DNA from: an uncultured Clostridia bacterium
GTDB lineage: Bacteria; Bacillota; Clostridia; Christensenellales; UBA1242
Length of the DNA stretch: 64,000 bases
Direction of reading: 5' to 3'
Assembly (NCBI GenBank): GCA_937992055.1
Contig: CALKLQ010000055.1
Span: 362 to 64,361 of the forward strand
A program made the translations under genes and the position numbers. The notes beneath the pieces are model-generated. The model made no database searches. It had not been told where the DNA came from and saw only the letters and a list, made by a program, of their open reading frames with translations. Shown piece by piece: positions 9,366-61,980 of this stretch; positions within the stretch are counted from its first letter, which is position 1; every line of letters begins with the position of its first letter.

Positions 9366-9405
9366 TATTTTTAAGAAAAGTGCACTTGCAATTTGCAAAT
9401 GCACT
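9366..9405 (-). terminator. rho-independent terminator after the 3277-aa gene
   Basis: Arms 9379..9390 (agtgcacttgca) and 9394..9405 (tgcaaatgcact) form a 12-bp stem with one mismatch and a 3-nt loop. The stem starts at the TAG stop and is followed on the minus strand by TTTCTTAAAAA. Confidence 0.55.
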
Positions 9406-45347: not shown

Positions 45348-45433
45348 GCCGAAGTGGTGGAATGGCAGACGCGTCGGACTCAAAATCCGATGTTGGCAAC
45401 AACGTGCGGGTTCAAGTCCCGCCTTCGGCACCA
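45348..45433 (+). tRNA. tRNA-Leu (anticodon CAA), CCA encoded
   Basis: Acceptor GCCGAAG/CTTCGGC, anticodon stem TCGGA/TCCGA with loop CTCAAAA, long variable arm (tgttggcaacaacgt), T arm GCGGG-TTCAAGT-CCCGC, then A-CCA. Confidence 0.92.
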
Positions 45434-45510: not shown

Positions 45511-46401
45511 TTACCTCATCAAATATAATTTAGCTAATATTGCTAATCCTTTTTCTTTTTCAGATTTTATAATTTCTCCTTTACTTATCATTCGGTTTAA
45601 TGCTTTGTCGATTAGTAAAGCATCTTGTTTGTTTATATCACTTCTGCCCAAAATTGCAGAAATTGGTACATTATTAACTTCTTCATTATTAAAGGATAGT
45701 TCTTTTAACTTATCAACATTTTCCTTTACTAATTTTACCATTGCAAGAAAAGTTGTTGATGGATTTTTGATATTTAAACACTTTGAAATAGTAGTTGTAA
45801 TTTCCAAATAATTATCATAATCTCTCATACTTGCTAAAATATGATTATTGTTTAGTAAATCTGAAATATTTTTAAAAGTTTCTTTGATATATTTTATCTC
45901 TTCAGGAAGAAATAACAAACTCATTGCTTGATATGTTAGATTTGGAACTTTAAAATCTTTTTCAACTTCTTTGCAAAAATTAACAAATTCATCGGTCAAG
46001 CCAGAATATTCTTTGAATTCTAAGCTTTCTAGTTCTCCATACAATCTTCTTAATAATTCTTCATCATCTTGTCCAGAAATAGAATTATGGCTCAACTGAA
46101 TTGCTAATGCTTGCTCTTTCGATAATCTATCTTTGCATAACATAACTTCAATTTCTTCAAGTCCAGCATCAATAGATGCTATAACTCTATGATTACCAGA
46201 TAAAACTTCTATTTCTTTATTTTTATTGTAAAAACAAAACGGAACAGAAGTTAGTTGTCCATCTTTTTTAATATTGGCAACTAATTTTTGATATTCTTCT
46301 GGTTTCATATATCTCGCATTTACTTCAAGTAATTTAATATCTTTGGGATTTATTTTTATAATTTCTGTTTCCATAACTCCAATCCTTCCTTTAATCTCCA
46401 T
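45511..46401 (-). CDS. ParB-like nuclease domain protein
   Basis: The N-terminus (INPKDIKLLEVNARYMKPEEYQKLVANIKKDGQLTSVP...VLSGNHRVIASIDAGLEEIEVML) matches the ParB/Srx N-terminal domain pattern. An alternative start at 46374 (METEII...) is possible. Overlaps the upstream gene. Confidence 0.7.
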   Translation of the reverse strand: MEIKGRIGVMETEIIKINPKDIKLLEVNARYMKPEEYQKLVANIKKDGQLTSVPFCFYNKNKEIEVLSGNHRVIASIDAGLEEIEVMLCKDRLSKEQALAIQLSHNSISGQDDEELLRRLYGELESLEFKEYSGLTDEFVNFCKEVEKDFKVPNLTYQAMSLLFLPEEIKYIKETFKNISDLLNNNHILASMRDYDNYLEITTTISKCLNIKNPSTTFLAMVKLVKENVDKLKELSFNNEEVNNVPISAILGRSDINKQDALLIDKALNRMISKGEIIKSEKEKGLAILAKLYLMR

Positions 46402-47567
46402 TTTCCCAATCGTGATACATAAGTTAAATTATAACTTCCATCTTGCATTTGATTTCTATCTTGTAAAGTGAATAAATCTCTATATTTTACAGATGACATA
46501 TTTTTAGTGAATACATTAGTAAAGACTGTTTTAATTTCTCTATTTGATAATCTTTCTGCTAACAATTTAACTTCTTTGCTTAAGACACAATACAAAACGA
46601 GCTTGCTCAATTTTTTTATATTTGAATTAGAGAAGTCTGATAATAAATAAATACAAGGTTGTTCTATCTCTTTTGGTGGCTTATTTCTGTAATCAGTTGT
46701 TAAACCAAAAACTCCAAATAATTTATTATTAGAAAATACTCCATAACAGGCTTTTGGAATTCCTAAATAGTGTATTTGTTTACTTAAATATTTTTGTCTT
46801 AAAGAATTAAATTGTGTTAAAGTCAATTGTTTAATTTCAACTCTTTCTATATTTTCATCTTCAATAATGTTAAACGATTTTTGAATTATGATTGAATTCG
46901 TCTTGTTTGATATTAGTTTTGATTTTATATTGATGTTAGAGTATATATTTAAATTTTTAGACTTTAAAATTTGATTTTGCTTTGTGAATGTTAAATCATT
47001 TTTAGATATAATAACAAAAGTAATATTTAAATCATACATTAGCTCAATTAATTTATCTTTTACAAAATTATGACTTCTGTTATCTACAATTAACAAATCT
47101 TTATCAGATATATATTTTATAAATTCTTCCAATTTAACATCTTTAAACTCTTTTATTTGTAAAGGTATTATGTTGATTTGACTTTTAATTTCACTTATTA
47201 ACTTGTTTTTATTTTTAACAACATTATTATAAATCCTAACATTGTGTTCGTTGTTTTCCCTTGGTTTATAATTCTTATAAATTACTGACATTGCAAGTTT
47301 TTCAATTTCGCTTATTTCACAATTTGTATCTAATTTAAAATCCTTATAAATTTCTTCACTTAATTTTAAATCAGAATTATAACTGAAATATTTACCAATT
47401 AAAACATTGCAAAAATCATCATCGCCACCAATAATTGGTGACGATGTTCGATTATATATTAACTTTTCTAATTCTAAATTTTCTGACCCATAAACATAAA
47501 TTTGTTTATATTCTTTTTGTTTAATTATATCAAAAATGTAATTGTTCACTATTGTTTTTGTTCTCAT
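46356..47567 (-). CDS. hypothetical protein (403 aa), phage-island associated
   Basis: Long ORF in operon-like overlap with both neighbours (38 nt and 46 nt). No motif I can name. The C-terminal third is (HYLGIPKACYGVF...LFGVFGL...IYLLSDF). Confidence 0.6.
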   Translation of the reverse strand: MRTKTIVNNYIFDIIKQKEYKQIYVYGSENLELEKLIYNRTSSPIIGGDDDFCNVLIGKYFSYNSDLKLSEEIYKDFKLDTNCEISEIEKLAMSVIYKNYKPRENNEHNVRIYNNVVKNKNKLISEIKSQINIIPLQIKEFKDVKLEEFIKYISDKDLLIVDNRSHNFVKDKLIELMYDLNITFVIISKNDLTFTKQNQILKSKNLNIYSNINIKSKLISNKTNSIIIQKSFNIIEDENIERVEIKQLTLTQFNSLRQKYLSKQIHYLGIPKACYGVFSNNKLFGVFGLTTDYRNKPPKEIEQPCIYLLSDFSNSNIKKLSKLVLYCVLSKEVKLLAERLSNREIKTVFTNVFTKNMSSVKYRDLFTLQDRNQMQDGSYNLTYVSRLGKWRLKEGLELWKQKL

Positions 47568-47919
47568 TTTCTAATTCTTCTACTTTTATTCCTAAATTAT
47601 CTTCAAACCATTTTGCCACAATTCTTCTGTGACAAAAAGTTTTTCCTTGTTTAATATCTGACCATTTTTCGTAACATAATAAAACAGCATTATCTCCAAG
47701 TTCCTGATATACTTCTTGTGGATTAAGTATGTTTAAAACATTTTCATAATACAACTTTGTATAAAATTCTTCATCTTCTATTTTAATAATTTCAGCTGGT
47801 GGAGCGAGCAATTTAAACTCTTCACCTTTCCAAAACCTATTAAATCTTGCAATAGACACAAATTTGTATCCTTTATCTTTAGGATAACTTTTAATTTGTC
47901 CAAAATAACCTGTAAACAT
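47530..47919 (-). CDS. DUF488-like protein
   Basis: Start set to ATG 47919 (AAGAGGTG RBS 6 nt upstream). The track start 47943 is TTG. MFTGYFGQIK...VSIARFNRFWKG...LAPP...VLLCYEKW...FCHRRIVAKWFEDNLGIKVEEL matches the recalled phage and Firmicute DUF488 pattern (LLC-x-E...CHRxxVAxWL). Confidence 0.55.
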   Translation of the reverse strand: MFTGYFGQIKSYPKDKGYKFVSIARFNRFWKGEEFKLLAPPAEIIKIEDEEFYTKLYYENVLNILNPQEVYQELGDNAVLLCYEKWSDIKQGKTFCHRRIVAKWFEDNLGIKVEELENENKNNSEQLHF

Positions 47920-47939
47920 AAAGCACCTCTTATTTTTCT

Positions 47940-48113
47940 TCAAACATTTTTTAATGTTTTTAAACGGCCATTGCGTGGCTCTGGCTTTCCAAAGTAGTCC
48001 TCACCCTTTTTTTGCAAAGTGTGAGGCGCATAACAATATTTGCATCTATGACTGCATCCTATATAAATATTAAGTGCATAAGGACTATATTCTCTTGCCA
48101 TTCCACATGGCAT
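47940..48113 (-). pseudogene. remnant of the 5' end of the radical SAM gene (copy a)
   Basis: 57-codon ORF MPCGMAREYSPYALNIYIGCSHRCKYCYAPHTLQKKGEDYFGKPEPR-NGRLKTLKNV*. The first 47 residues come from a 141-nt block identical to 50057..50197 inside the intact gene. Homology then ends. Confidence 0.8.
47971..48111. repeat. 141-nt repeat R1, copy a (identical to 50057..50197)
   Basis: Base-by-base comparison of the two stretches (ttgcgtggctctggctttcc...ttccacatggc) shows no mismatch by eye. Confidence 0.85.
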
Positions 48114-48190
48114 GAAGATAAATCAAATTTTACATATCAATTTGAAAACGATTATAAAATTTCAACATTTGTTGCTGTCACATAAATTGT
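48103..48190. repeat. 88-nt repeat R2, copy a (87/88 identical to 51058..51145)
   Basis: ccacatggcatgaagataaatcaaatttTacatatcaatttgaaaacgattataaaatttcaacatttgttgctgtcacataaattgt, with a single T/C difference. Covers the last 13 codons of the 104/105-aa genes, the spacer and the start of the radical SAM remnant. Confidence 0.85.
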
Positions 48191-48466
48191 GGTATCCTGA
48201 TCATCATCAAGAATGATTTCAATCATATTTCTCTGCCCTTTTACTTTCCAAATATTTAAAATATATTCGTCAATTTTGTTTAAAGGCTTTGAACATTTAA
48301 CATCTCTCACTTTAGAAAATTTTATCTCAATAGTTTTTTGCTGTTCATCAAAGTAAGGACTTGCTTCAAGTCTAAAACTAAACTCTTTTTCTTTTTCATT
48401 GTAATAAAGATTACTAATTTTACTATCATGAAAATTATAATTTTTAACAAAAATATTTAATGTCAT
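48152..48466 (-). CDS. small FHD-motif protein, immunity-like (104 aa)
   Basis: AGGAG RBS. Paralog of 51107..51424, with shared NFHD...FILNIW-VKGQ-NMIEII-DDD--TTIYVTATNVEIL. No signal peptide or TM segment. Confidence 0.7.
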   Translation of the reverse strand: MTLNIFVKNYNFHDSKISNLYYNEKEKEFSFRLEASPYFDEQQKTIEIKFSKVRDVKCSKPLNKIDEYILNIWKVKGQRNMIEIILDDDQDTTIYVTATNVEIL

Positions 48467-48633
48467 TTTACTCCTATTGCCAATAAACTTTACTATATAT
48501 CACTAACAATAAAATTTTTACAAAAGAACTCAATAAAAAACCAATCTGAAACATGTTTATCACGTCTTTTTTAACCCAATTATCTAATCCAAATAACACA
48601 CTGAATTTTTTACTTGATTAATATACTTTATTT

Positions 48634-48873
48634 TCAAAAAATCAATTGAATTTTCATCTTTAATAATATGTTCATATCTGCATAAGACAACAGTTGTGAA
48701 ACATCATTGAATTCAATTATGTATCCCTTTAAATTTTTGTTATCTTTTTCTAGTTCTTCAATTTGCCACTCGCAATATTCAAAATAAATTCTTAAATGAT
48801 TTTCTTTTTTAACAAATTTAATATCTTTTATAATTTCATCGTGTAAGAAGTAACTTCTTTCAAATTCTTTTAT
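48634..48873 (-). pseudogene. degraded FHD-motif gene lacking an in-frame start
   Basis: My translation gives an 82-aa open frame ...AIKEFERSYFLHDEIIKDIKFVKKENHLRIYFEYCEWQIEELEKDNKNLKGYIIEFNDV...* with no in-frame ATG near its 5' end. An AGGAG followed by ATG CCA TAA lies one frame off at its 5' end, consistent with a 1-nt indel. Confidence 0.4.
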
Positions 48874-48886
48874 GGCATTTGTGCTC

Positions 48887-49303
48887 CTAATTTTTTATTT
48901 GATAGCTCAACTTTTTACTGACAATATATGTTGAATTAACTTTCTTTAAATTTAAATCGTCCTCAATGTTATCAACATCCTTGACAAAAACAAAACTATT
49001 ATTTTTTAGATATATATTTCCTCCAAAAATTAAGCTATCAAAATTTTTTAAAACTGGTTTTATTACAGCTTTTGAAATAAGCTCAAACTTTAGTTTAATG
49101 GTTCCACACCAACATCCCTCTATCACCATAATAATTTCTGCTTTGTCATCACTTGGATGTGTCCAGCCATTTGAAGAATAAGAGCCTGAAACATAGTTTA
49201 TTGACTTTATCACACCATCGTGAAAATAGCCTGCTTCATCAAGAAAACTCTTTAATTCTTCTTTATTGTTTATATTTGTATACATATTTTTCTCCAAATT
49301 CAT
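48887..49303 (-). CDS. small FHD-motif protein, immunity-like (138 aa)
   Basis: ORF with an N-terminal ...LDEAGYFHDGVIKSINY... motif shared with the 104/105-aa proteins. No signal peptide or TM segment. Confidence 0.6.
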   Translation of the reverse strand: MNLEKNMYTNINNKEELKSFLDEAGYFHDGVIKSINYVSGSYSSNGWTHPSDDKAEIIMVIEGCWCGTIKLKFELISKAVIKPVLKNFDSLIFGGNIYLKNNSFVFVKDVDNIEDDLNLKKVNSTYIVSKKLSYQIKN

Positions 49304-49380
49304 TCTAATGCTTATTTTAAAATCATCTATTCAATATCTTATGATAATGGACCTTTCCTCTCCATCCTAGCATAAATTTT

Positions 49381-50214
49381 TTAATTGGATATTTCATCAA
49401 ATAAGCTTATTTGTTCGCTTGGCTTTATTCTCACAACATATTCATCTGGATTTTTTTCTTGTGGAGTGAGAACAACATTTGGAGCGAGTTTACGCAGACA
49501 AAACTTATAATATACTTGCTTGCCAGTTGGACGAAGCAAATCTACACAATCTTGCAAATATTTTGCCCAGTCTTGCCACTTATCTTCACGTTTATAGTTA
49601 TTTATTTTTCCAATCTTATAATGATCAACGCAGTCCAATTCAAGTGTCCTGCGAATAAGACCCAAACTTTCTTCTGGTTCAATTGTCGGCTCAAAACTTG
49701 CAAAAGTCTTTATTCCATGGTCATGCAATATTTTCAATGTTTCTAATCTATCTTGTGGCAAACTCGCATTTGGCTCCCAAAGTTTGCTTTTTTCTTCATC
49801 CAAAAATGTCAGTGTTGTGCCAATTGTAATACGGTCACCAAACTCTTTAAAAACATCCAAATCCCGCAGCATTTTCTTGCCACCCTTGGAAAGTATAGCA
49901 ACAGGCACGTTAAATGAGTTCAGCATTTTCAAAACTTCTCTAACCGTCTGTCCATCATCTGCACTATCACAATAACAGTCACCAACAAAAGATAAAAGCA
50001 CTTGCTCGGTGTATGTATTTTTTTTCAAGTCTTTTTCTAAAATTTTCAAAATATTTTTGCGTGGCTCTGGCTTTCCAAAGTAGTCCTCACCCTTTTTTTG
50101 CAAAGTGTGAGGCGCATAACAATATTTGCATCTATGACTGCATCCTATATAAATATTAAGTGCATAAGGACTATATTCTCTTGCCATTCCACATGGCCTG
50201 TAAATAACACTCAT
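49381..50214 (-). CDS. radical SAM protein, SPL/COG1533-like
   Basis: NIYIGCSHRCKYCYAP is a CxxxCxxC cluster in the context typical of the DNA-photolyase-like radical SAM group. Start set to ATG 50214 (MSVIYRPCGMAREY...). The 39 upstream codons of the track ORF are low complexity and overlap another small ORF. Confidence 0.75.
   Translation of the reverse strand: MSVIYRPCGMAREYSPYALNIYIGCSHRCKYCYAPHTLQKKGEDYFGKPEPRKNILKILEKDLKKNTYTEQVLLSFVGDCYCDSADDGQTVREVLKMLNSFNVPVAILSKGGKKMLRDLDVFKEFGDRITIGTTLTFLDEEKSKLWEPNASLPQDRLETLKILHDHGIKTFASFEPTIEPEESLGLIRRTLELDCVDHYKIGKINNYKREDKWQDWAKYLQDCVDLLRPTGKQVYYKFCLRKLAPNVVLTPQEKNPDEYVVRIKPSEQISLFDEISN
50057..50197. repeat. 141-nt repeat R1, copy b (inside the intact radical SAM gene)
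   Basis: Identical to 47971..48111. Confidence 0.85.
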
Positions 50215-50248
50215 GCGAATATTATAGCATAAAAGGCCATAATTTTTA

Positions 50249-50383
50249 TTAATATAATACATCAAATTTAATATTTTTATAATCAAACTGCAATTCATCG
50301 TAGTCATCATTATCCAAAATGATATAAGCATTATATTTGTTTATTTTTAAATCCAAAACAAATTGGTTATAAATGAGAGGCAT
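50249..50383 (-). CDS. 44-aa acidic ORF following the toxin stub (possible immunity remnant)
   Basis: MPLIYNQFVLDLKINKYNAYIILDNDDYDELQFDYKNIKFDVLY*, starting 8 nt after the stub's stop. Too short to be sure it is expressed. Confidence 0.25.
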   Translation of the reverse strand: MPLIYNQFVLDLKINKYNAYIILDNDDYDELQFDYKNIKFDVLY

Positions 50384-50391
50384 TACTTTCC

Positions 50392-50493
50392 TTAGGACAT
50401 TGATTTCCGTACTTTGTCTAAATATTCATCCCATCTACCTGTCGAATTTGGATTCTCCGCGTGATAATGATCAGTTCCACTTATAGCAATTAG
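50392..50493 (-). pseudogene. C-terminal stub of a third toxin-like module
   Basis: The frame opens right after the stop of the 127-aa gene: LIAISGTDHYHAENPNSTGRWDEYLDKVRKSMS*. It aligns with LSGNKGKDHYHWRNPNSKNDKDFYLDRYG of the intact copy. No start codon or leader. Confidence 0.55.
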
Positions 50494-50501
50494 CTAGTTT
50501 T

Positions 50502-50885
50502 TTATTTAAGTTTTTCGATTTCTTCTTTGCTTAGTTTTTCCCATTTTATTGGGAAATTGTGATAATTCAAGAATATCGTTTGATTTTTTCTCCACTTACA
50601 TTTTTCTGTTTTATTTTTTACCTTTAAAATTTTGAAGTAAAACTCATAATATTCTTCATAATCTGGATCATTTAATTCTAAATCATTATCTGAATCACCG
50701 TATCCCTCAAACTCGACATACAAAATTGTTCCATCTTTGAATTCAAGTTGCTGATACTTTGGCCACTTCCCTAAAGCGCCTAGAAATTCTATATAATAGC
50801 CGATTATATTACCTTCATACGGATTCCACCAAATCGCCTTTTCCCCATTATCGTAAATCCACTCATTTTTTTTATTTAACCTCAT
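50502..50885 (-). CDS. small acidic hypothetical protein, immunity-like (127 aa)
   Basis: GGAGAG RBS. No signal peptide or TM segment. Acidic stretch GYGDSDNDLELNDPDYEEYYEF. Preceded by a 14-codon orphan tail (YHVVPAPPNGWDLN*). Confidence 0.55.
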   Translation of the reverse strand: MRLNKKNEWIYDNGEKAIWWNPYEGNIIGYYIEFLGALGKWPKYQQLEFKDGTILYVEFEGYGDSDNDLELNDPDYEEYYEFYFKILKVKNKTEKCKWRKNQTIFLNYHNFPIKWEKLSKEEIEKLK

Positions 50886-50954: not shown

Positions 50955-51068
50955 TCATGAAATCATTTTGCAAAGTGTGGGCGCATGACAATATCTGCAT
51001 CTATGACTGCATTCTATATTAATATTAAGCCCATAAGAACTAAATTCTCTCGCCATGCCACATGGCAT
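50955..51068 (-). pseudogene. degenerate remnant of the 5' end of the radical SAM gene (copy c)
   Basis: MPCGMAREFSSYGLNINIECSHRCRYCHAPTLCKMIS*. Diverged and frameshifted relative to the intact MSVIYRPCGMAREYSPYALNIYIGCSHRCKYCYAPHTL. Confidence 0.7.
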
Positions 51069-51145
51069 GAAGATAAATCAAATTTCACATATCAATTTGA
51101 AAACGATTATAAAATTTCAACATTTGTTGCTGTCACATAAATTGT
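51058..51145. repeat. 88-nt repeat R2, copy c
   Basis: 87/88 identical to 48103..48190. Confidence 0.85.
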
Positions 51146-51424
51146 TGTACATTCATCATCATCAAAAATTATTTCAATCATATTTGCTTGACCTTTTACA
51201 TTCCAAATATTCAAAATAAAATCATCAAGATCTGTAAGTTCCTTTTTGCATTTTATATCTATTACGTTATAAAATTTTATAATATAGCATTTGCTTGTTT
51301 CAAATCCAGAAACTTGGTTTGTAAATAATGTAAAAGTTAGTTCATTATCCTTTTTATTAAAAATAAAATTATTTGCTCTACAATCATGAAAATTATTCTC
51401 TTTAACAAATTTTCTTAGTTTCAT
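51107..51424 (-). CDS. small FHD-motif protein, immunity-like (105 aa)
   Basis: AAGGAG RBS. Paralog of 48152..48466. Lies directly downstream of the nonsense-mutated toxin-like gene. Confidence 0.7.
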   Translation of the reverse strand: MKLRKFVKENNFHDCRANNFIFNKKDNELTFTLFTNQVSGFETSKCYIIKFYNVIDIKCKKELTDLDDFILNIWNVKGQANMIEIIFDDDECTTIYVTATNVEIL

Positions 51425-51464: not shown

Positions 51465-51743
51465 CTAATGTAAGAGCACTTCAGGGCTATGCCTAGGTGC
51501 TGGATTTCCATTTTTATCTAAATAATAATCATTATTGCCGGTTTTATTTGGATTTGTCATGTGATAATGTTCAGGATCACCATTTCTTGCAGGATCCTTT
51601 CGAAATATTCGATTTGTTTTGTTGTCTCTATACTCTCTATGTCCATGCTCTCTTTGCCCTGGTCTTGACGTATCGCTAAATCTGCTTCCGCGAAAAGATC
51701 CACCACCGCCACCGCCAAAAAGTTATATATTAAATTTACTCAT
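51465..51743 (-). pseudogene. toxin-like gene copy 2, inactivated by an in-frame TAA at codon 7
   Basis: GGAGGGAG RBS then ATG AGT AAA TTT AAT ATA TAA CTT TTT GGC GGT GGC... The intact copy has ...TTA CAA CTT TTT GGC GGT GGC... The rest of the frame is open: LFGGGGGGSFRGSRF...DPEHYHMTNPNKTGNNDYYLDKNGNPAPRHSPEVLLH*. Confidence 0.7.
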
Positions 51744-51795
51744 ACTCCCTCCTCTAATCGTTCCACTTTTTGTGATTACAGGGGGATATTTTTAA
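51702..51795. repeat. 94-nt repeat R3, copy 2 (about 84 percent identical to 52851..52944)
   Basis: Hand alignment gives 79/94 matches. Covers the leader codons, the RBS and a relic of the last ~17 codons of the ParB-DUF4417 gene. Confidence 0.75.
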
Positions 51796-51798
51796 TAC

Positions 51799-52539
51799 TT
51801 ATCTTTCTCCTTTTGACATATTATCTATATAAAATTTGTAATAGTGAGAATCTATATATGTTATTTTATCAAGTTGAAATGAAACTTTATCTGATTTAAA
51901 TTTAATTGAATTTGTGGTTTCAATCCATCCAGCTTCAACGTCGTCAAAAGTTGTTATTATTGTTACTTCCCCGTTATTTTCTTTCAACGAAACAATTTCC
52001 CATTGATCATTATCAATATTTTTACCATAATATTCATTTACATTAAAAAATTTTATTATTAAATCCAAATCATTTTTGCTGGATATTGAAATTTTTTTAT
52101 TTTGAATCCAATTGTGAAAAAATATATGCATAGTTAATACTTTATCTTCGTTGTTGTATTGTAATCCGTAATTAGTTGACATTTCAAAATTTACATTATT
52201 CACATAAGACGAATCTTTCTTAAGAATATATTCTTTATCATCGTACAATAATTCAATATTGGGAAAATTTTGCTCGTTGAATTGCAACAAATCGCTCTTT
52301 CTCAATTTTGAATTTTTATTTTTCTTTAAAACTTTTAAAACCCTAAAACCAACATAAAATTTTTCTTTAAACACAAAAATTCTTTCAAAAATTGCATGCA
52401 CAATTTCATTATTATTTACAATAACATAAATAAATTTAAAGTTTTTGTCATTTTTTTCTTTTCTACAAATAAAATTATAAATTTTAGAATTTTTATCTAG
52501 TTTATTAATTTCTTTTAAAGTTAAATCTTTTATAATCAT
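51799..52539 (-). CDS. hypothetical protein (246 aa), candidate cognate immunity of the intact toxin-like gene
   Basis: Its ATG overlaps the upstream stop (ATGA at 52536..52539), suggesting translational coupling. No signal peptide or TM segment. The C-terminal half (MHIFFHNWIQNKKISI...EVTIITTFDD) loosely resembles the FHD-motif proteins. Confidence 0.6.
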   Translation of the reverse strand: MIIKDLTLKEINKLDKNSKIYNFICRKEKNDKNFKFIYVIVNNNEIVHAIFERIFVFKEKFYVGFRVLKVLKKNKNSKLRKSDLLQFNEQNFPNIELLYDDKEYILKKDSSYVNNVNFEMSTNYGLQYNNEDKVLTMHIFFHNWIQNKKISISSKNDLDLIIKFFNVNEYYGKNIDNDQWEIVSLKENNGEVTIITTFDDVEAGWIETTNSIKFKSDKVSFQLDKITYIDSHYYKFYIDNMSKGER

Positions 52540-52892
52540 TTTTTCGACCCTCCATATAAATGTGATCCTTTTGAATTTTTTTCTGTAGGATGTCCATATC
52601 TATCTAAATAAAAATCTTTATCGTTTTTACTATTAGGATTTCTCCAATGATAATGATCTTTGCCTTTGTTTCCTGATAGACCTTGTCGCCCTTTATGAAA
52701 TTCTACTTTATCTCCAGTTTTAGGATTATGATATTCCTTTACGTGTGGTGGTTTTCTTGGGTCTGTCACATCTCTCCAACCATTCCGTTCTAAATCTCGC
52801 GGGTTTTTGGGTAAACTATTGTAACTGTATTTAGTATACATGCCACTTGAACCACCGCCACCGCCAAAAAGTTGTAAGTTAAATTTAAACAT
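52536..52892 (-). CDS. small toxin-like protein with a Prp-type N-terminal leader (118 aa)
   Basis: AGGAGG RBS 5 nt before ATG 52892. The track start 52919 lies inside the upstream gene. MFKFNLQLFGGGGGSSGMYTKY...GDKVEFHKGRQGLSGNKGKDHYHWRNPNSKNDKDFYLDRYGHPTEKNSKGSHLYGGSKK. The start overlaps the ParB-DUF4417 stop by 8 nt. Confidence 0.7.
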   Translation of the reverse strand: MFKFNLQLFGGGGGSSGMYTKYSYNSLPKNPRDLERNGWRDVTDPRKPPHVKEYHNPKTGDKVEFHKGRQGLSGNKGKDHYHWRNPNSKNDKDFYLDRYGHPTEKNSKGSHLYGGSKK

Positions 52893-52944
52893 AATTCCTC
52901 CTAAAATCGTTCCACTCATTGTGATTGTAAGGGAATATTTTTAA
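52851..52944. repeat. 94-nt repeat R3, copy 1
   Basis: See 51702..51795. Confidence 0.75.
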
Positions 52945-53934
52945 ATTTCCACCCATTTTTGGAAATGGTTTATCATAACATATGATAGCACTTGGTTTTA
53001 CAATTTCCAACATTTTGTTATATCCTTTCATAAATTCCTCTTCAATTTTTTGCTTCCCAAAAGTTGCGACTGCAACAACACTTCCTTCTTCTACACCATC
53101 AAAACAAAATTCAAAGCTTTTTTCATCACTCCACTCAATCGTTGGAATAACCCTCAACCCTAAACTTTGCCAATATGCTCCACACCAACGATTTTTGAAA
53201 GTGTTTTTTATTTGCAAAGAAATTGACATATCTGTATACAAACTATAATCTGGCGTTAATAGGCAATAATATTGTTTTAATTTGTTAACTGCCAAATCTG
53301 GGTGTGAATACACATAATCAAATTTGTAGTCATATGTAAAAAATTGTATTGTTTTATCCATATTTTTAAAGTCGTTATATTTTGTGTTTGAAAAGTTCAT
53401 TAGTTTAATTTTTTCCAAATTAATGTCTTGCTTTTTGACAAGTGGCATTTGATATTTCCCAACCATTTCAAACTCATTTCTTGCAAGTTTTTGCTTATGT
53501 CTTGCAAGATAATCTCTAAAACTATCATTATCTATATTTAAATTTTCAAGTTTAGCGGTATTAACACCAAAACTTTCAAAATTGAAATTTTGCAGTTTTT
53601 TCAACTCTTGCAATAAAATGCCATCATCAAATCCCGTTTCCAAATTTACTGCGTTATGGGCAATCACATATGCTTGACGCTCTTCATCTGTCAAATGGTC
53701 AAGACGTACACATGGCAGTTTTTTAAGCCCCAACAATTTTGCGGCTTCAACTCTGCCATTTCCTTCCAAAACAACATTATCTTCGCCAGCTATGCCTAGT
53801 GGGTCATTAAAGCCAAATTCTTCAATTGAATTTGCAATGTGTCGTATCTGTTCTTTAGTATGAATTTTAGAGTTGTTTTCAAAATGCGTCAGTTCTGAAA
53901 TATCTACATAATCAATTTTTAAATCTTCTTTCAT
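52885..53934 (-). CDS. ParB-like nuclease domain / DUF4417 fusion protein
   Basis: Start set to ATG 53934 (AGGAGA RBS; MKEDLKIDYVDISELTHFENNSKIH...). The N-terminal ParB-like domain has NVVLEGNGRVEAAKLLGLKKLPCV. The C-terminal region FFTYDYKFDYVY...LTPDYSLYTDMSISLQIKNTFKNRWCGAYWQSLGLRVIPTIEWSDEKSFEFCFDG matches the recalled DUF4417 pattern. Confidence 0.7.
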   Translation of the reverse strand: MKEDLKIDYVDISELTHFENNSKIHTKEQIRHIANSIEEFGFNDPLGIAGEDNVVLEGNGRVEAAKLLGLKKLPCVRLDHLTDEERQAYVIAHNAVNLETGFDDGILLQELKKLQNFNFESFGVNTAKLENLNIDNDSFRDYLARHKQKLARNEFEMVGKYQMPLVKKQDINLEKIKLMNFSNTKYNDFKNMDKTIQFFTYDYKFDYVYSHPDLAVNKLKQYYCLLTPDYSLYTDMSISLQIKNTFKNRWCGAYWQSLGLRVIPTIEWSDEKSFEFCFDGVEEGSVVAVATFGKQKIEEEFMKGYNKMLEIVKPSAIICYDKPFPKMGGNLKIFPYNHNEWNDFRRNYV

Positions 53935-54380
53935 CTTTTTCTCCTTATTTCTGGCGTAAGCCTTAAATCTTTTAAAATCTTTTCCAGATGTTTGTTGCAA
54001 TCTAATAAAATTTTGTAGTGTTCATTTTCTTTAACAACAACTTTTGGAGTTTTCCCATCATTTGAAATTCCTGTAACAATTCTAATGTATCTTTCAGGAT
54101 TTTCATTCCATTTTTTCCAAGCCCTATCTCGCATAACTTTTAATTGACAATATTGCCAAATCAATTCAACATCAGACTCAGTTAGACAGTATTTAATACT
54201 TTTCTGTAATTGATTTACAATGCTTTTATAAACAATTTTTTCTTCGTCGGATAAATATTCCGGAACCTTCAAAATTTCATTATTCTGATTAATTCTTTCT
54301 TGTTCATATTTTTGCCACTGTAGATTCATCTCTTCTTTTCGTGTCTTTTCTTTCTTTTCATATTCTTCATCAAAAAACAT
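53931..54380 (-). CDS. phage terminase small subunit, P27 family-like
   Basis: Start set to ATG 54380 (AAAGGAGAAAAA RBS; the track start is TTG). VPEYLSDEEKIVYKSIVNQL...SDVELIWQYCQL...LLDCNKHLEKILKDLRLTPEIRRK fits the recalled P27-family layout ending in L-[GR]-L-T-P-x-x-R. Confidence 0.6.
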   Translation of the reverse strand: MFFDEEYEKKEKTRKEEMNLQWQKYEQERINQNNEILKVPEYLSDEEKIVYKSIVNQLQKSIKYCLTESDVELIWQYCQLKVMRDRAWKKWNENPERYIRIVTGISNDGKTPKVVVKENEHYKILLDCNKHLEKILKDLRLTPEIRRKR

Positions 54381-54660
54381 TTTTTCTCCTTTTATAATAC
54401 AAAAGGTTGAAAAGACAATTCGTCTTCTCAACCTTAATTTTATTTTATCTTATCATACAAATCATCAAAACTGCAAGAAAGTATGCCAACTTTTAATTTA
54501 ACTAATCATTTTCTGACTTTTATAAATTTAAATATAACTCTACTGTAATTTCTAAATATTGTATATCAAAAGCAATTCATTAATAAACAAGGAAAATTAA
54601 ATTAATCTATCTAAATTTAAGTTAGTTCGATATTTTGTTTATTATTCATATTCATTGCAA

Positions 54661-57433: not shown

Positions 57434-58870
57434 TTAAATTTCATGTAGCTTTACATTTAGCAATTCATTTTTTATTTTTTTAAGTTTATCAGAAAGATTT
57501 ACCACATAAGTATGTGGGTTTACTAATCTCAACGCCTCTTCCCACAGGGTATTAAGTTCAGATTGAACCTTTTGGCGGGTTTGAGAAATACTTGGAATTT
57601 TATATATAATCTCTCCATTTTCCATCATTTTCTTGCGCAAATTGATTACTTTATAATCCTCAACATCTTTTGTTACCCAACTGTTATCTGGATGAGTTAA
57701 AGTGAGTTTACCTTTAGGCAATTCTTCATCGTAAACGCAAAGTAAATCATTTATAAGTTTTCCATCTCTATTGTAAATACGATAAATCTTTTTAAAATGT
57801 GGATTGGTTATCTTTTCAACATTGTCAGAAATTTTTATTTTTGGAACAATCTCATTGTTTTTTTCAATTGCAACAAGTTTATAAACTCCACCAAAAACTG
57901 GATTAGATTTACTTGTAATCAGATTTTCGCCCACTCCAAAGCTATCAATTGGAGCATTTTGCTCTATTAATGATGCAATAACATATTCATCTAAAGAGTT
58001 TGAAGTTACAATTTTTGTATCTTTCAAGCCTGCTTCATCCAACATTTTTCTTGACACCTTAGACAAATATGCCAAATCTCCACTATCGATTCTAATTCCA
58101 GCAAGTGTCTTGTTTTTTGGTTTTAGAACCTCGTTGTTAACCTTTATAGCATTTGGGATTCCACTATTTAAAGTATTATAAGTATCAACCAAAAAGGTAC
58201 TTGAGTTAGGAAAGCTTTCCGCATATGCTTTAAAAGCCTCATACTCGCTATCAAAACTTTGAATAAAGCTATGACCCATTGTGCCTAAAACGGGCACATT
58301 ATATTTTTTTCCTGTTTGGGTACATGCTGTGCCGTTTGCACCAGCTATGTATGCCGCCAAAGCCCCGTCTACAGCGGCAGATTCTCCTTGTGCTCTTCTG
58401 CTTCCAAATTCCATAACAGTTCTACCTTTAGCACTTCTAACAATTCTACTTGCCTTGGTCGTTATCAAACTATTATGATTAAAAAATATCAAAAGCGCGG
58501 TTTCAACAAGTTGAGCTTCAAGAAGGGGCGCCTTAATAGTAATCACTGGCTCATTTGGAAAAACTATGGTCCCATCTTCAACCGCCCACATGTCACCTGT
58601 GAATTTTATATTTTTTAATCTCTTTAAATAAGCTTCACTAAACAAATTTAAACTTTTCAAATAATCAATATCACTTTCAGAAAAGTGAAATTGTGACAAA
58701 TATTCAACACATTTATTTACCCCATTAGCAATTACAAAACTGCCACCATCAGGCACTTTTCTAAAAAACAAATCAAAATATGCGATATTATTATCAATTT
58801 TTTTATCAAAATATCCCTGTCCCATTGTTAACTCGTAAAAATCCATTACTAAATTATTAAATTCTTCCAT
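57434..58870 (-). CDS. pncB: nicotinate phosphoribosyltransferase
   Basis: 478 aa. N-terminal DFYELTMGQGYF, GTMGHSFIQSF and IRIDSGDLAYLS blocks typical of NAPRTase. Confidence 0.9.
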   Translation of the reverse strand: MEEFNNLVMDFYELTMGQGYFDKKIDNNIAYFDLFFRKVPDGGSFVIANGVNKCVEYLSQFHFSESDIDYLKSLNLFSEAYLKRLKNIKFTGDMWAVEDGTIVFPNEPVITIKAPLLEAQLVETALLIFFNHNSLITTKASRIVRSAKGRTVMEFGSRRAQGESAAVDGALAAYIAGANGTACTQTGKKYNVPVLGTMGHSFIQSFDSEYEAFKAYAESFPNSSTFLVDTYNTLNSGIPNAIKVNNEVLKPKNKTLAGIRIDSGDLAYLSKVSRKMLDEAGLKDTKIVTSNSLDEYVIASLIEQNAPIDSFGVGENLITSKSNPVFGGVYKLVAIEKNNEIVPKIKISDNVEKITNPHFKKIYRIYNRDGKLINDLLCVYDEELPKGKLTLTHPDNSWVTKDVEDYKVINLRKKMMENGEIIYKIPSISQTRQKVQSELNTLWEEALRLVNPHTYVVNLSDKLKKIKNELLNVKLHEI

Positions 58871-58911
58871 ATCATACTCCTATTTTTTTGTTTTTGAAAG
58901 CGACAATTATC

Positions 58912-59439
58912 TTATTTGCATTCAGTTATTACTCGCTTATTTAATATTTTTTCAATATCCTCTCTTGCTTCCGGCATAATAAATTTTTTATATTTTTCAT
59001 ATTCTTGTCGTATGTTTGTTCCGTGGACATTAATTGCATCTCTATCTATTGGGACAAACGTACACTGCGGAAAAAATTTATTAAGTTCCCTATAGCTTTC
59101 ATCTGCATATTTGTAATTAACCTCATATGGAACGCTTTTCCAAAATAATTTTGCGTAATCACTCATAAAATCTTTTGAGTTAACAATCTTTGACTCATCT
59201 ATCAGTGCAAAATGGATTTTTTTATTGTTTTTATAATGTCTTTTAAACCAATTGAGCCTTTGATTTGAATTGAAATAAGGGAAATTTGCCTCTTCACATT
59301 GTTTTTTACTTTTTTCAGGATTATCGGAAACGACAACAACACATTCATCACATTGTTTTAATACTTTATCAATAATGCTTAAATGCCCCATATGAGGTGG
59401 AAGAAATTTTCCAACAAATGCTCCTATTTTCTTAGCCAT
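58912..59439 (-). CDS. nicotinamide/nicotinate mononucleotide adenylyltransferase-like nucleotidyltransferase
   Basis: 175 aa. GKFLPPHMGHLS is a (H/T)xGH motif, and the C-terminal VHGTNIRQ is an ISxTxIR-like motif. Lies inside the NAD operon. Confidence 0.7.
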   Translation of the reverse strand: MAKKIGAFVGKFLPPHMGHLSIIDKVLKQCDECVVVVSDNPEKSKKQCEEANFPYFNSNQRLNWFKRHYKNNKKIHFALIDESKIVNSKDFMSDYAKLFWKSVPYEVNYKYADESYRELNKFFPQCTFVPIDRDAINVHGTNIRQEYEKYKKFIMPEAREDIEKILNKRVITECK

Positions 59440-60025
59440 TTTTAACCTCCAAAAATTTATTCTTATAGTAAAATAACTTTAATTGCAAGGCGCTTTGAAG
59501 TCCAAAATTGTGGTTGTCTACAAAGTTTAAAATATAATTTAATTCTATTTGGAAATAAGTTATATCCTCATCCACTTCCAGTTTTTGTTTTTTATCTAAC
59601 AAGACCTCCGCCTCAAAACATTCCACGGACTCGTCGCTAATACCCGCGCTTGTAAAACTATTTGCTTGAACTTTCTTCAAATTAATCACACTTGCACCTA
59701 TTTCCTCCTCTAATTCTCTCTTTACTGCCATGATAGGTTCTTCATTTTCCTCTACTAGTCCCGCTGGCAAGCCAAAAATATAATCATTTATTGCATACCT
59801 AAATTCCTTAATAACCACAAGGTAAATTTTATTATTTTTTTTGATATAAGGCAGAATTCTAACCGCGTCAACTATATCTTTAGATTTTGATTCCAAAGTT
59901 TGAAATTTTCTTCTTGAGGCAAAATAGTATTCTTTTTGTCTATTTTCATCCAAAATATATGTATATTTGTACAAATTTAAATATTTAACATTTGTAAGTT
60001 TTTTTATATTCACTAACTTTTTCAT
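59432..60025 (-). CDS. Nudix hydrolase (ADP-ribose pyrophosphatase-like)
   Basis: Intact Nudix box G-LVEEN-E-EPIMAVK-RELEEEIG. Overlaps both neighbours. Confidence 0.8.
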   Translation of the reverse strand: MKKLVNIKKLTNVKYLNLYKYTYILDENRQKEYYFASRRKFQTLESKSKDIVDAVRILPYIKKNNKIYLVVIKEFRYAINDYIFGLPAGLVEENEEPIMAVKRELEEEIGASVINLKKVQANSFTSAGISDESVECFEAEVLLDKKQKLEVDEDITYFQIELNYILNFVDNHNFGLQSALQLKLFYYKNKFLEVKNG

Positions 60026-60600
60026 AATATCTTCTCGAATTTATCAAAATTTTGAATTAATGCGCCCATTTTTTTCATATTCATAAGGGCTTTTTTATGA
60101 AGAATTTCTGCATTGTGATTCTCACTATTAAAGGTGTAGCAAGCGTTTTCATAAACAATTACTTTTGTAAAAAGATTGTTAGATTTAATATAATTAAGAT
60201 AACTTGACACAAAATTGATAACACAAATATCTGTGCAACATCCACATACAAAAACGTTGTCAAAATTGTTATTATTTATTAACCTTTTAAACTCTGGCGT
60301 TATAAAACCATTTGTTGTGTTTTTGTCTATAATATGGTCAAATAACTTTTCATATCTTTTCAGTTCAGGGATCAACTCACTTTCCTCACTACTCTTTATG
60401 CAATGAGGCGGGAAATCCTTAAATTCCTCATCAAAGACTTCATGGCAGTCTTTAAAAGCCACTACTTTATAATTGTTTTGTTTAGCTTTATTTATAGCAT
60501 TAACAATAGTAGGGGTAATTTTATTAATATTTTTATCTGCCAATGCCCCAAAATTAACAAAACCATTGACCATATCAATTACAACTAATAAATTTTTCAT
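60022..60600 (-). CDS. pncA: isochorismatase-family cysteine hydrolase, nicotinamidase-like
   Basis: 192 aa. LLVVIDMVNGF and VFVCGCCTDICV (catalytic Cys context). First gene of the operon with pncB. AAGGAG RBS. Confidence 0.75.
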   Translation of the reverse strand: MKNLLVVIDMVNGFVNFGALADKNINKITPTIVNAINKAKQNNYKVVAFKDCHEVFDEEFKDFPPHCIKSSEESELIPELKRYEKLFDHIIDKNTTNGFITPEFKRLINNNNFDNVFVCGCCTDICVINFVSSYLNYIKSNNLFTKVIVYENACYTFNSENHNAEILHKKALMNMKKMGALIQNFDKFEKIL

Positions 60601-61060
60601 TTAAATTTCTCCTTATAAATTAAAATTTGATTTTTTTATACAAAGTTGAAAACAAGTCATTTGCAGCTGGCACAATAAATAAAATTATTGATTTAACGTT
60701 TATAACACAAAATAAAACTAAAATTTTTTAAACCTAGAATTGCCCATATTGTTCAAAGAATCTATAATCAATTTTTACAACGAAGCAATATAAATCATAC
60801 TTATAAATCTATAACATCTCGTTTAGTTTGTGAGATATATAAAAATATAATTCACTTAAACAAAAAGTCTTCTGCTGCATTTGATTTTAAATTTGCGAAT
60901 CTTGCAAACCAATAATGATATTTATAAAATTCAAAAAAATTAATTATTTACCAGGCAATTCCTTAAATGCCTTGAATATCATACTCATTATGCTCAACAT
61001 TAGTCCTCAACCTTTAATTGATTACTAAAATTATTACCTCCCTTTTTTGTTATTTTCATT

Positions 61061-61073
61061 ATGATAATATCAT
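61061..61073. promoter_or_regulatory. perfect palindrome ATGATA-A-TATCAT (operator candidate 1)
   Basis: Read directly. The arms atgata / tatcat are exact reverse complements. Confidence 0.4.
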
Positions 61074-61109
61074 ATTAAAATTATATTGTCAATAAATTTT
61101 ATAAACTTG

Positions 61110-61140
61110 TTGACATTTTTTTATTAGTCTGATATTATCA
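61110..61140 (+). promoter_or_regulatory. promoter TTGACA-17-TATTAT with overlapping palindrome TGATA-T-TATCA (operator candidate 2)
   Basis: TTGACA at 61110..61115, a 17-nt spacer, and TATTAT at 61133..61138. The palindrome at 61130..61140 covers the -10 box. Lies 30 nt upstream of the GTG start of the prs-like gene. Confidence 0.5.
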
Positions 61141-61170
61141 CAATGAAAATATATTGTAGGAGAGAAAAAA

Positions 61171-61980
61171 GTGTTAATTAACAAACGTGAGTTTACTCCA
61201 AAAAGATTTTCTAGCGGTGAATTGAAGTTATTAAAAAGCCAACTTGATGAATTTATAAAACAAAATAGAGTTGAAATTTTGTATGAAAACGATTTTAATA
61301 TTTTTGAACTTTTTTTAATAATTGATTATTATAAGAAAAAAAAGGTCAATATAGATTTAATTTTAAGCTATCTTCCCTATCAAAGAATGGAACATAAAGG
61401 AAGAGATGAGTTGGACACTGTTAGTTATGTCGCAAATTTGTTTAATAGCTTTAACTTAGATTCTATAACCTTATGCGAACCTCATTGTGATATAAATTGC
61501 TTTATGAACTCCAAAAAAATAAGTTTTATACATGAATTAAAAGCTAAAATTTTTAAAGAAATTAATTTTGATTTAAAAAATGACTATGTCGTATTAACTG
61601 ATAAAGGCGGTTACAAAAAATATAAAAATATAGCTCAAAACATGGTATACTTTAACAAGGAAAGAGATTTCCAAACCGGGCTTATAATTAATCAAAATAT
61701 AGTTGGAAAAATTGATGTAAGTAAAAAAATCTTAATTATAGATGACATAATTTCCACGGGAGATACAATTGTCAATATTATACAATATTTAACTACACTT
61801 GGAGCCAAAGAAATTTACATCTTTTCCGCACATTTAGAAAACAATAAGTTTAATAAACGAATAGAGGAATTTTTTAATGTTAAAAAAATATTTGCAACAA
61901 ATAGCTTAAAAAAACAAGGTACTAAAAAAATTAAATTATATGACATAAGGAAGATTATTTATGGAAACAAAGATTATTAA
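61171..61980 (+). CDS. ribose-phosphate pyrophosphokinase-like phosphoribosyltransferase
   Basis: GTG start after an AGGAGA RBS. 269 aa. PRPP-binding loop ILIIDDIISTGDTIV. The upstream LPYQRMEH resembles the Prs [FY]ARQDR region but is divergent. Confidence 0.6.
   Translation: MLINKREFTPKRFSSGELKLLKSQLDEFIKQNRVEILYENDFNIFELFLIIDYYKKKKVNIDLILSYLPYQRMEHKGRDELDTVSYVANLFNSFNLDSITLCEPHCDINCFMNSKKISFIHELKAKIFKEINFDLKNDYVVLTDKGGYKKYKNIAQNMVYFNKERDFQTGLIINQNIVGKIDVSKKILIIDDIISTGDTIVNIIQYLTTLGAKEIYIFSAHLENNKFNKRIEEFFNVKKIFATNSLKKQGTKKIKLYDIRKIIYGNKDY

Follow-up and report, generated by a model that had tools for sequence, protein, structure and literature searches.

A predicted Prp-type leader on a small candidate toxin of a DUF4417-linked effector family in Firmicutes phages and islands

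Prp, a cysteine protease of the host, trims the N-terminal extension of ribosomal protein L27 and the leaders of the capsid and scaffold proteins of phage 80alpha (Wall et al. 2015; PMC5744158; PMC9405229). The L27 extension follows the consensus MLxx(D/N)LQ(F/L)F'A(S/H)KK, with leaders of nine amino acids (aa) in the Clostridia (MLLMNLQLF'A, MLNMNLQFF'A and MMKMNLQFF'A; PMC9405229 Table 2), the size limit of the Prp pocket is such that only small P1'/P2' residues are tolerated, and the phyla reported with a long L27 and Prp include the Firmicutes and Synergistetes, the Bacteroidota not being listed (PMC9405229). A Prp-type motif has already been noted on non-homologous phage proteins, the phage 80 capsid and a phi13 tail protein (PMC5744158). 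Among phage-borne toxins, carriage in the capsid has been proposed for the MuF toxins of temperate phages (Zhang et al. 2012, PMC3482391; Jamet et al. 2017, PMC5576092), and MuF alone was mentioned for phage heads in the 2012 toxin survey (PMC3482391). Here, a small toxin gene was analysed in a 64-kb stretch of DNA (contig CALKLQ010000055.1, positions 362 to 64,361; hereafter the window, whose own numbering is used throughout). The gene (52536..52892, minus strand; 118 aa) sits in a phage-derived island of a Christensenellales chromosome and begins with a leader of the L27 type. The interpretation held here, with moderate confidence and from sequence comparison, is that this is the N-terminus of a small toxin in a DUF4417-linked effector family of Firmicutes phages and islands, and that its leader would be a Prp leader.

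Already known are the Prp/L27 system, the cutting of the 80alpha capsid and scaffold proteins by Prp, and the MuF polymorphic toxins borne by phages; what is added here is a predicted polymorphic effector system whose N-terminal module and accessory protein are both new. Full-text literature searches returned no link between a Prp/L27 leader and a toxin, no GGRG[AS]SSG family and no role for DUF4417, whose sole mention there is as a fusion partner, enriched in phages, of the ParB CTPase fold. A preliminary description of the locus had called the route undescribed for small toxins, and no description of it was found in these searches.

The same description had reported a KFNLQLF-GGGG leader on the toxin, and that leader is real. 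The minus strand from 52892 to 52851 reads ATG TTT AAA TTT AAC TTA CAA CTT TTT GGC GGT GGC GGT GGT, the reverse complement of 52851-52892, and encodes MFKFNLQLFGGGGG. An AGGAGG Shine-Dalgarno sequence lies 4 nt upstream of the ATG at 52892; a longer open reading frame (ORF) from the ATG at 52919 was rejected for want of homologue support, because the homologues all begin at the position equivalent to 52892. The nine leader codons (MFKFNLQLF; 52866..52892, minus strand), an L27-type (Prp-type) pro-sequence with a predicted cut after Phe9, are followed by the Gly/Ser-rich stretch GGGGGSSG (52842..52865, minus strand), the predicted mature N-terminus, and by a polymorphic-toxin domain of ~95 aa (DHYH..NP..YLD..SH). 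Residues 1-14 are disordered in an AlphaFold2 (AF2) model of the toxin (predicted local distance difference test, pLDDT, <50). The Gly stretch is not the mere linker it had been taken for: it is the local form of a conserved GGRG[AS]SSG motif, which reads GGRG[VAT]SSG in the closest homologues and opens the leaderless relatives as M-GGRGASSG.

A second, divergent toxin cassette (51465..51743, minus strand) holds the pseudogene copy of the leader, MSKFNI(*)LFGGGGGG, much as it had been described. It reads MSKFNI*LFGGGGGGSF...EHYHMTNPNKTGNNDYYLDKNGNP... and also EHYHMTNPN...DYYLDKNGNP, and is inactivated by a single in-frame stop, a TAA (51725-51723) in place of the CAA (Gln) of the intact copy. 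The two cassettes share a repeated 'constant region' of 94 nt at 84% identity (51702..51795, partner 52851-52944; minus strand), which takes in the leader with its ribosome-binding site and, as a 3' end relic, the final ~50 nt of the DUF4417 gene. Such a layout is what one expects where polymorphic-toxin cassettes are swapped.

Set against the known Prp substrates, the leader is equal in length to the Clostridial L27 leaders, with nine residues counted from Met1. Its P5-P1 residues, N-L-Q-L-F, fit (D/N)-L-Q-(F/L)-F, and K-F stands at P7-P6 as in the 80alpha scaffold, with whose K-F-N-L-Q-F-F'A it is identical at six of seven positions; P1' and P2' are Gly-Gly, both small. The toxin thereby resembles the L27 and 80alpha substrates in the N-terminal placement and 9-aa length of the leader, its K-φ-N-L-Q-[LF]-F pattern, the small P1'/P2' residues, the Firmicutes/Synergistetes hosts and the occurrence on phage proteins, whereas it differs in its toxin carrier, the Gly at P1', the second motif GGRG[AS]SSG and the DUF4417 link, and in that cleavage is here predicted. 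Removal of toxin residues 1-9 by Prp is judged fairly likely.

The preliminary description had placed the toxin next to terS, and a gene in fact stands between them. On the minus strand the order is terS, ParB-DUF4417, toxin, a 246-aa ORF, and the pseudogene cassette with a 105-aa ORF. The terminase small subunit gene, terS (53931..54431, minus strand), is of the P27 family (Pfam Terminase_4 E 5e-6; TIGR01558 E 1e-8). The intervening gene encodes a ParB_N + DUF4417 protein of 349 aa from its ATG (52885..53934, minus strand; Pfam DUF4417 E 4e-55, with a weak ParB_N match), the mechanical ORF from TTG reaching 54000; the last 8 nt of the gene, stop codon included, are shared with the start of the toxin gene. 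The protein matches phrog_940 'nuclease', and the N-terminal half of its AF2 model is a ParB CTPase fold; a fold search with the full model returned ParB-domain matches only, none for the DUF4417 part. Islands with the same backbone were found in a Christensenella sp. metagenome-assembled genome (MAG; L267) and in other Clostridia (L259, L281), each with terS at the same position and, after it, ParB-DUF4417, a small toxin with the leader and a small ORF; in L267, a quite different toxin stands behind the same leader. The RpoB encoded in the window is 85-87% identical to those of Christensenellales/Catabacter MAGs, and the host is therefore taken to be a Clostridia gut bacterium (Christensenellales).

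When 2.9 million viral contigs were scanned with a degenerate DNA pattern for K-φ-N-φ-Q-[LF]-F-G-G, 57 loci were returned, some of which are capsid, scaffold-position and tail-tube proteins. The leader in its F'GG form is borne by a Phage_capsid protein (L118) and a tail-tube protein (L089), and one phage contig (L134, ~5958-8550) itself encodes a Peptidase_Prp homologue (112 aa), flanked on one side by the portal gene and on the other by a scaffold-position protein with the leader (F'GG); next to the latter comes a capsid protein with a leader of its own (F'AE). Small leader-bearing ORFs that are neither capsid nor scaffold proteins, for which the preliminary description had suggested a search, exist in number: 26 of the scan loci are small ORFs composed of the leader, GG[RN]G[AGS]SS.. 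and unrelated C-termini. Behind leader-GGRG stand Gln_amidase PF15644 (a papain-fold glutamine deamidase), ADPrib_exo_Tox PF03496, an HExxH metallopeptidase, phrog_9479 and unknown domains. A DUF4417 ORF lies at most 939 nt upstream, mostly overlapping, in 24 of these 26; one of the remaining two has too little upstream sequence and the other has DUF4417 directly downstream. Among leader-bearing small ORFs without GGRG (60-260 aa; scaffold-like, tail-tube), DUF4417 was upstream in none of 12. The ~505-aa ORFs of L093, L095, L099 and L128 carry the same MLKFNLQLFGGG leader with Hint_2 near the C-terminus, and may be another leader-bearing, self-processing toxin type.

A leader-independent sample was drawn from the same contigs with an alignment query for DUF4417, a single-sequence query having given no match, and comprised 80 ParB-DUF4417 viral loci (607 kb, not de-replicated). 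At least one same-strand ORF starting M-GGRG[AS]SSG or leader-GGRG was present in 57 of the 80, positioned between DUF4417 and terS/terL where loci were inspected. Leaderless M-GGRG ORFs numbered 83 and leader-GGRG ORFs 7, besides variants such as ELHLQFF-GGRG, and the two forms are mixed in tandem arrays at L101, L149 and L194. The terL Walker A sequence GGRGS[TG]KSS mimics the GGRG core and gave false positives in L149, L155, L165, L172, L198, L199 and L217.

These distributions bear on a further alternative, a chance resemblance in an AT-rich start region, which the shortness of the motif might suggest and which the preliminary description had said would follow if homologues lacked the leader. 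Most distant homologues are in fact leaderless; the leader is nevertheless not a chance match, because the closest homologues and many non-homologous effectors share it. It is kept by both paralogous cassettes, by every close homologue and by dozens of unrelated proteins, many of them small phage proteins, always at Met1 and with the length and consensus of Clostridial L27. The pattern [ND]-φ-Q-x-[FLYM]-[AGS] occurs at an ORF start in the toxin gene alone in the whole window, and motif ORFs on the opposite strand of the 80 DUF4417 loci number zero. Recurrence at Met1 across homologues and unrelated proteins effectively excludes chance, which we regard as barely credible.

The relation of the leader to the Gly-rich end can be seen in Streptococcus pyogenes phage A25, where the ORF after the DUF4417 gene gp22 and before terS begins MGGRGASSGMSDKG. 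This A25 protein (M-GGRGASSGMSDKGDKYGTEY) is 49% identical to the leader-bearing protein of a viral contig (L115; MKINIQLF-GGRGASSGISANGKVYGTEF) from Phe8 of the latter on, and the leader is thus a module set exactly before the Gly-rich end. Like the window toxin, A25 gp23 (YP_009191530), APZ81907 of phage Str01 and phrog_9479 belong to the GGRG[AS]SSG family and lie directly after DUF4417 and before terS; unlike it, they are leaderless, have another C-terminal domain and no immunity gene, and are annotated as hypothetical. In the A25 record (L289, NC_028697; 2501-2911), RefSeq gp23 starts at an internal Met; the first ATG, right after a stop codon, gives MGGRGASSG, and RefSeq has probably set the start 9 codons too late. 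No cultured-phage example with the leader was found: three queries, namely the window toxin, a 226-aa leader protein of unclassified type and a metallopeptidase-type leader protein, had no tblastn match in 50,697 deposited phage genomes. Methionine aminopeptidase removes the initiator Met before Gly. Since leaderless relatives start M-GGRG, the Prp route and Met removal would expose the same GGRG end.

The taxonomic range of the leader was explored by a genome scan (one genome per species, 596 Gb; leader at most 8 codons from the start, then GGRG[AGST]S). It gave ~18 N-terminal loci, in Clostridia, Lachnospiraceae, Ruminococcus, Erysipelotrichaceae, Christensenella, Synergistales and three Bacteroidota-labelled contigs; matches in other phyla were internal or without GGRG[AGST]S, in about chance number. 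At the N-terminus, then, the leader is almost restricted to lineages with Prp. Within this range, the effector leader of each of three lineages can be set beside the L27 of that lineage: ..NLFDLQFF'GGRG vs MRINFFDLQFF'AHKK in Synergistales (L272), MLELNIQLF' vs MKFVLDIQLF'A in Erysipelotrichaceae (L232), and M-V-x-NLQFF' vs MLNMNLQFF' in Lachnospiraceae (L269/L231). Such pairs, which are anecdotes and not statistics, hint that the effector leader varies with the L27 leader of the lineage and may co-evolve with the host Prp.

Stand-alone homologues of the toxin of at most 135 aa (~94) were surveyed for their N-termini, which fell into three types, each with a context of its own. Type (a), M-x-(K)-I/F-N-L/I-Q-L-F/L-GGRG[AVT]SSG, is found in the closest relatives (53-65% identity), the leader being carried by P0002, P0032, P0155, P0156, P0158 and the variant P0157, and occurs with terS and ParB-DUF4417 (window, L259, L281). 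Type (b), MG-x-G-x-x-GGFGNT-x-G, follows a ParB-less DUF4417 in chromosomal islands with DUF4417 fragments and more cassettes (L086, L287), and type (c), MSKG-x-S-Y-x-Y-SGTKGH, occurs in relaxase/type IV secretion system (T4SS) elements (L284-L286). In every readable context of a small homologue, DUF4417 lies directly upstream with stop/start overlap and a small ORF lies downstream; because this order is the same throughout, DUF4417, toxin and candidate immunity gene make up a conserved module. Of its versions, the one with the Prp-like leader was seen where the context is terS/ParB (phage-type). The DUF4417 proteins P0349, P0354, P0359 and P0365 bear a C-terminal Cys_rich_CPCC and a further domain; these tails resemble the ORFs in immunity position after the L267 toxin, so that DUF4417 can be fused to an immunity-like module.

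The leader could alternatively be left uncleaved, as a conserved tag for DUF4417 binding, translational coupling or cassette recombination, with its likeness to L27 convergent. The repeated constant region, which takes in the leader together with the end of the DUF4417 gene, would suit such a role, as would the sharing by the other N-terminal types of an aromatic residue followed by [GS]-[GN]-[TR]-x-G, of which 'F-GGRG' may be a variant. A tag of this kind would leave several observations without a place: in its K, N, Q and F residues, its length of nine aa and its start at Met1 the leader agrees precisely with those of L27, an identical one is borne by capsid and tail proteins and occurs next to a phage Prp, leaderless paralogues set in right where the cut is predicted, and the leader is taxonomically restricted and co-varies with lineage. 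An uncleaved leader is therefore considered improbable, and cleavage by Prp remains the preferred reading of the nine residues.

The carrier, called toxin-like in the preliminary description, was found to have a domain that belongs to a large toxin family. A profile built from the four first matches retrieved 526 cluster representatives in which the domain is always C-terminal, in proteins of 100-1923 aa. Because it is shared among diverse N-terminal partners, namely RHS repeats, WXG100/LXG, PT-TG, PT-HINT, Peptidase_C39-RHS and Phage_portal (P0036), it is of the polymorphic-toxin type, and next to the window toxin stands a conserved candidate immunity gene. In one RHS-type locus (L001) a member, P0004, forms an orphan module that follows a protein of >1900 aa, the adjoining orphan carrying TEN_YD-shell and Ribonuclease matches. 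The toxin and its 246-aa neighbour had no match in Pfam, NCBIfam, PHROGs or PADLOC, a direct search of the one-genome-per-species collection found no toxin relatives, and PDB sequence searches with the toxin-family profiles A1 and A3 returned noise only.

Invariant residues of the toxin are H80, Y81, H82, N85, D97, S110 and H111. The best PDB fold for its AF2 model (pLDDT 82.6) is the PT7 DNase 8owu_C (Foldseek probability 0.96, E 0.16, 13% identity; template modelling score, TM, 0.64 over the 76-aa target). PT7 itself is an endo-DNase that requires Mg, cuts non-specifically and has catalytic Asp/His (bioRxiv 10.1101/2021.10.19.465003), and the UniRef name of the homologue P0016 reads 'HNH/Endo VII superfamil...'. 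The toxin resembles PT7 of the PT7/PIM7 pair (8owu) as a short C-terminal polymorphic-toxin domain and best structural match, and differs in that the E-value and identity are those just given and no sequence-profile match was found, so homology to PT7 stays putative. The invariant H-x-H, N, D and S-H suggest that the toxin probably cuts DNA in a metal-dependent manner; on the model, a DNase activity is plausible.

The Gly-Gly that follows a short hydrophobic N-terminus, together with a distant domain relative (P0075) that is an RHS protein with Peptidase_C39, brings to mind a secretion leader of the double-glycine (class II bacteriocin) type, which a C39-peptidase ABC exporter would cut behind GG. 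Double-glycine bacteriocin leaders have the pattern LSxxELxxIxGG. The would-be leader here has 11 aa and lacks that pattern, the island holds no C39/ABC transporter, and the context is always a phage packaging module after DUF4417. With a sequence so unfit and no transporter in the island, this explanation is effectively excluded; its probability is very small.

The gene after the toxin encodes a candidate immunity protein of 246 aa (51799..52539, minus strand), its start overlapping the toxin stop (ATGA). The protein is 41% identical over 186 aa (E 1e-28) to a 250-aa ORF in L281, which comes right after the toxin P0155, itself 60% identical to the window toxin, and it also resembles an ORF fragment after P0002. 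This neighbour co-varies with the toxin subtype, and its gene is translationally coupled to the toxin gene; as a candidate immunity protein it would protect the toxin producer, an assignment that is uncertain. The 105-aa protein after the pseudogene (51107..51424, minus strand) represents a second immunity-type family and is 55% identical to an orphan 104-aa paralogue (48152..48466, minus strand), which weakly resembles ORFs after the toxins of L259, L287 and L284 (E 8e-6 to 5e-3). With relatives that follow toxins of the same family, the 246-aa, 105-aa and 104-aa proteins fit what would be expected of immunity and orphan-immunity genes.

Besides the pseudogene with its constant region and the orphan immunity paralogues, the spare cassettes of the island include a third toxin remnant, truncated and frameshifted (50367..50493, minus strand; ..DHYHAENPNSTGRWDEYLDK.. 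then NQCPKESNASHL); a further decayed immunity-like reading frame is found at ~48600-48880. The L287 island likewise holds spare cassettes, with DUF4417 fragments. Radical-SAM 5' fragments (MPCGMAREYSPYALNIYIGCSHRCKYCYAPH...) stand beside the immunity-type ORFs at 47940-48113 and 50955-51068 (minus strand), as repeats D1 and D2 with 89-90% identity, the full gene being at 49381-50331; recombination that took radical-SAM 5' ends with it seems to have enlarged the cassette array. An ORF of 127 aa at 50502-50885 (minus strand) has a short stretch similar to the 246-aa protein and the L281 250-aa ORF, and may be a truncated immunity paralogue.

A mechanism can be proposed from these parts. Prp, the essential cysteine protease of the host, would cut after Phe9 and leave GGGGGSSG... 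as the new N-terminus, an end of the kind that leaderless relatives would gain through removal of the initiator Met before Gly. The exposed Gly-rich end would be recognised by ParB-DUF4417 or by the DNA-packaging machinery, and the toxin would accompany packaged DNA in the capsid of a helper phage, which would be needed because the island has terS but no capsid genes. The toxin would then kill by metal-dependent DNA cleavage, with the 246-aa neighbour protecting the producer. Prp processing is likely and capsid delivery only possible: the two later steps, recognition of the Gly-rich end and exit with packaged DNA, are drawn by analogy and are put forward tentatively, as something we would doubt sooner than assume. 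What speaks for capsid delivery is the position in the packaging module and the Phage_portal fusion of the same toxin domain in P0036.

Two described arrangements are the nearest to such a delivery. The internal proteins IPI-III of phage T4 have an N-terminal capsid-targeting sequence, which is removed by the prohead protease gp21, and are injected with the DNA; the Dar proteins of phage P1 are comparable. The toxin resembles both as a small effector with a short N-terminal peptide that is cut by a capsid-maturing protease, and differs in that the protease here would be a host ribosomal-maturation enzyme and the packaging is proposed. With the MuF toxins, the family shares phage-borne toxin domains (ADP-ribosyltransferase, ART; Tox-PL1/Gln deamidase; nucleases), small immunity genes, which are candidates here, and the packaging/head module. 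Unlike them, its members are free-standing small proteins that come after ParB-DUF4417 and lie upstream of terS instead of after the portal, and their N-terminal module is a Prp-type leader and/or a Gly-rich motif; no MuF domain (PF04233/PF06152) was found in the toxin, and no portal or capsid gene in the island.

A number of observations weigh against the interpretation held here. P1' of the known Prp substrates is Ala or Ser, not Gly. The L27 and prp genes are not in the 64-kb window, their possession by the host being read from its taxonomy, and three leader contigs were binned as Bacteroidales, Bacteroidaceae and Alloprevotella; it is plausible that these were mis-binned, as their layout is that of typical Firmicutes phages. 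About 87 of the 94 small stand-alone homologues use the non-leader motifs MGxGxxGGFGNTxG or MSKGxSYxYSGTKGH, and since most small homologues have such other N-termini, the leader is dispensable for toxin function as such. Nor is it needed for whatever the GGRG end does, given the 83 leaderless ORFs against 7 with a leader; judging from these sequences, its role must be an addition and not the core of the system. The module of DUF4417, toxin and immunity gene also occurs on a conjugative element and in a chromosomal island without phage genes, while the window island itself contains no terL, portal, capsid or integrase genes. Finally, the leaderless APZ81907 of phage Str01 was not among 12 virion proteins identified by liquid chromatography-tandem mass spectrometry (LC-MS/MS) with stringent cut-offs, which a low-copy internal protein could escape.

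Several of the same observations would fit a leader that is cut by Prp in a module that is never delivered, which would act inside the cell in addiction, exclusion or abortive infection while Prp merely matures or times the toxin. The three-gene module is carried by the conjugative or mobilisable elements L284-L286, the L287 module lies in a defence-island-like region beside AAA_21 and GmrSD/HNH genes, the window island is without capsid genes, the fusion of DUF4417 to an immunity-like CPCC domain suggests an intracellular partnership, and the family member of Str01 is not listed in its virion proteomics. An intracellular role accords less well with a toxin domain otherwise typical of exported polymorphic toxins (RHS, LXG, PT-HINT, portal fusion), or with spare cassettes and orphan immunity genes, which typify antagonism between cells. 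Many GGRG genes of phages lack a following gene of immunity size, the next gene in A25 being terS, and neither toxin nor immunity protein had a PADLOC match. Retention inside the cell, the strongest of the alternatives, is possible, if rather unlikely.

The effector-family interpretation can be carried further than the toxin. The leader and GGRG[AS]SSG might together define a new delivery class of polymorphic effectors for Firmicutes phages and their satellites, matured by Prp, loaded by their exposed Gly-rich end onto packaged DNA by ParB-DUF4417 and co-injected, with the DUF4417-toxin modules of conjugative elements as the T4SS counterpart; this extension is doubtful. Were it true, a cell that destroys the incoming DNA would get the toxin and never the immunity gene. 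Should Prp cut the leader, an essential protease of ribosome maturation, which has been proposed as an antibiotic target, would also mature toxins and effectors of mobile elements, and its substrate range would reach beyond L27 and virion structural proteins. Independent of cleavage, there is a large unannotated family with a (leader-)GGRG[AS]SSG start and interchangeable toxin domains, which many phages of Firmicutes, A25 among them, encode immediately behind ParB-DUF4417 within the packaging module; this family offers a first functional handle on DUF4417 and a possible route for phages, satellites and perhaps conjugative elements to carry protein weapons with their DNA.

Beyond the pseudogene cassette, the minus strand of the island continues with the radical-SAM fragments and one full copy, small ORFs, and proteins of 403 and 296 aa, up to a tRNA-Leu. 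This remainder of the backbone (45511..50331, minus strand) is common to related islands (Pfam results): the radical-SAM protein (49381-50331), the 403-aa phage-GNAT-like protein (46356-47567) and the 296-aa protein (45511-46401) are 82%, 68% and 79% identical, respectively, to ORFs of L267. The tRNA-Leu gene (45348-45433, plus strand) lies just outside the island, and no att repeat of at least 14 nt was found at that end. With terS, a flanking tRNA and no terL, portal, capsid or integrase gene, the island may be a PICI-like phage satellite or a prophage remnant. Outside the island, two adjacent giant ORFs of 3277 and 6078 aa (9404-19237 and 19256-37492, minus strand) span 28 kb, and a cluster for NAD salvage/biosynthesis just past the island (57434-62707) comprises genes for NAPRTase, a cytidylyltransferase-like (nadD-type) protein, NUDIX, an isochorismatase/PncA-like protein, a phosphoribosyltransferase (PRTase) and NAD synthase.

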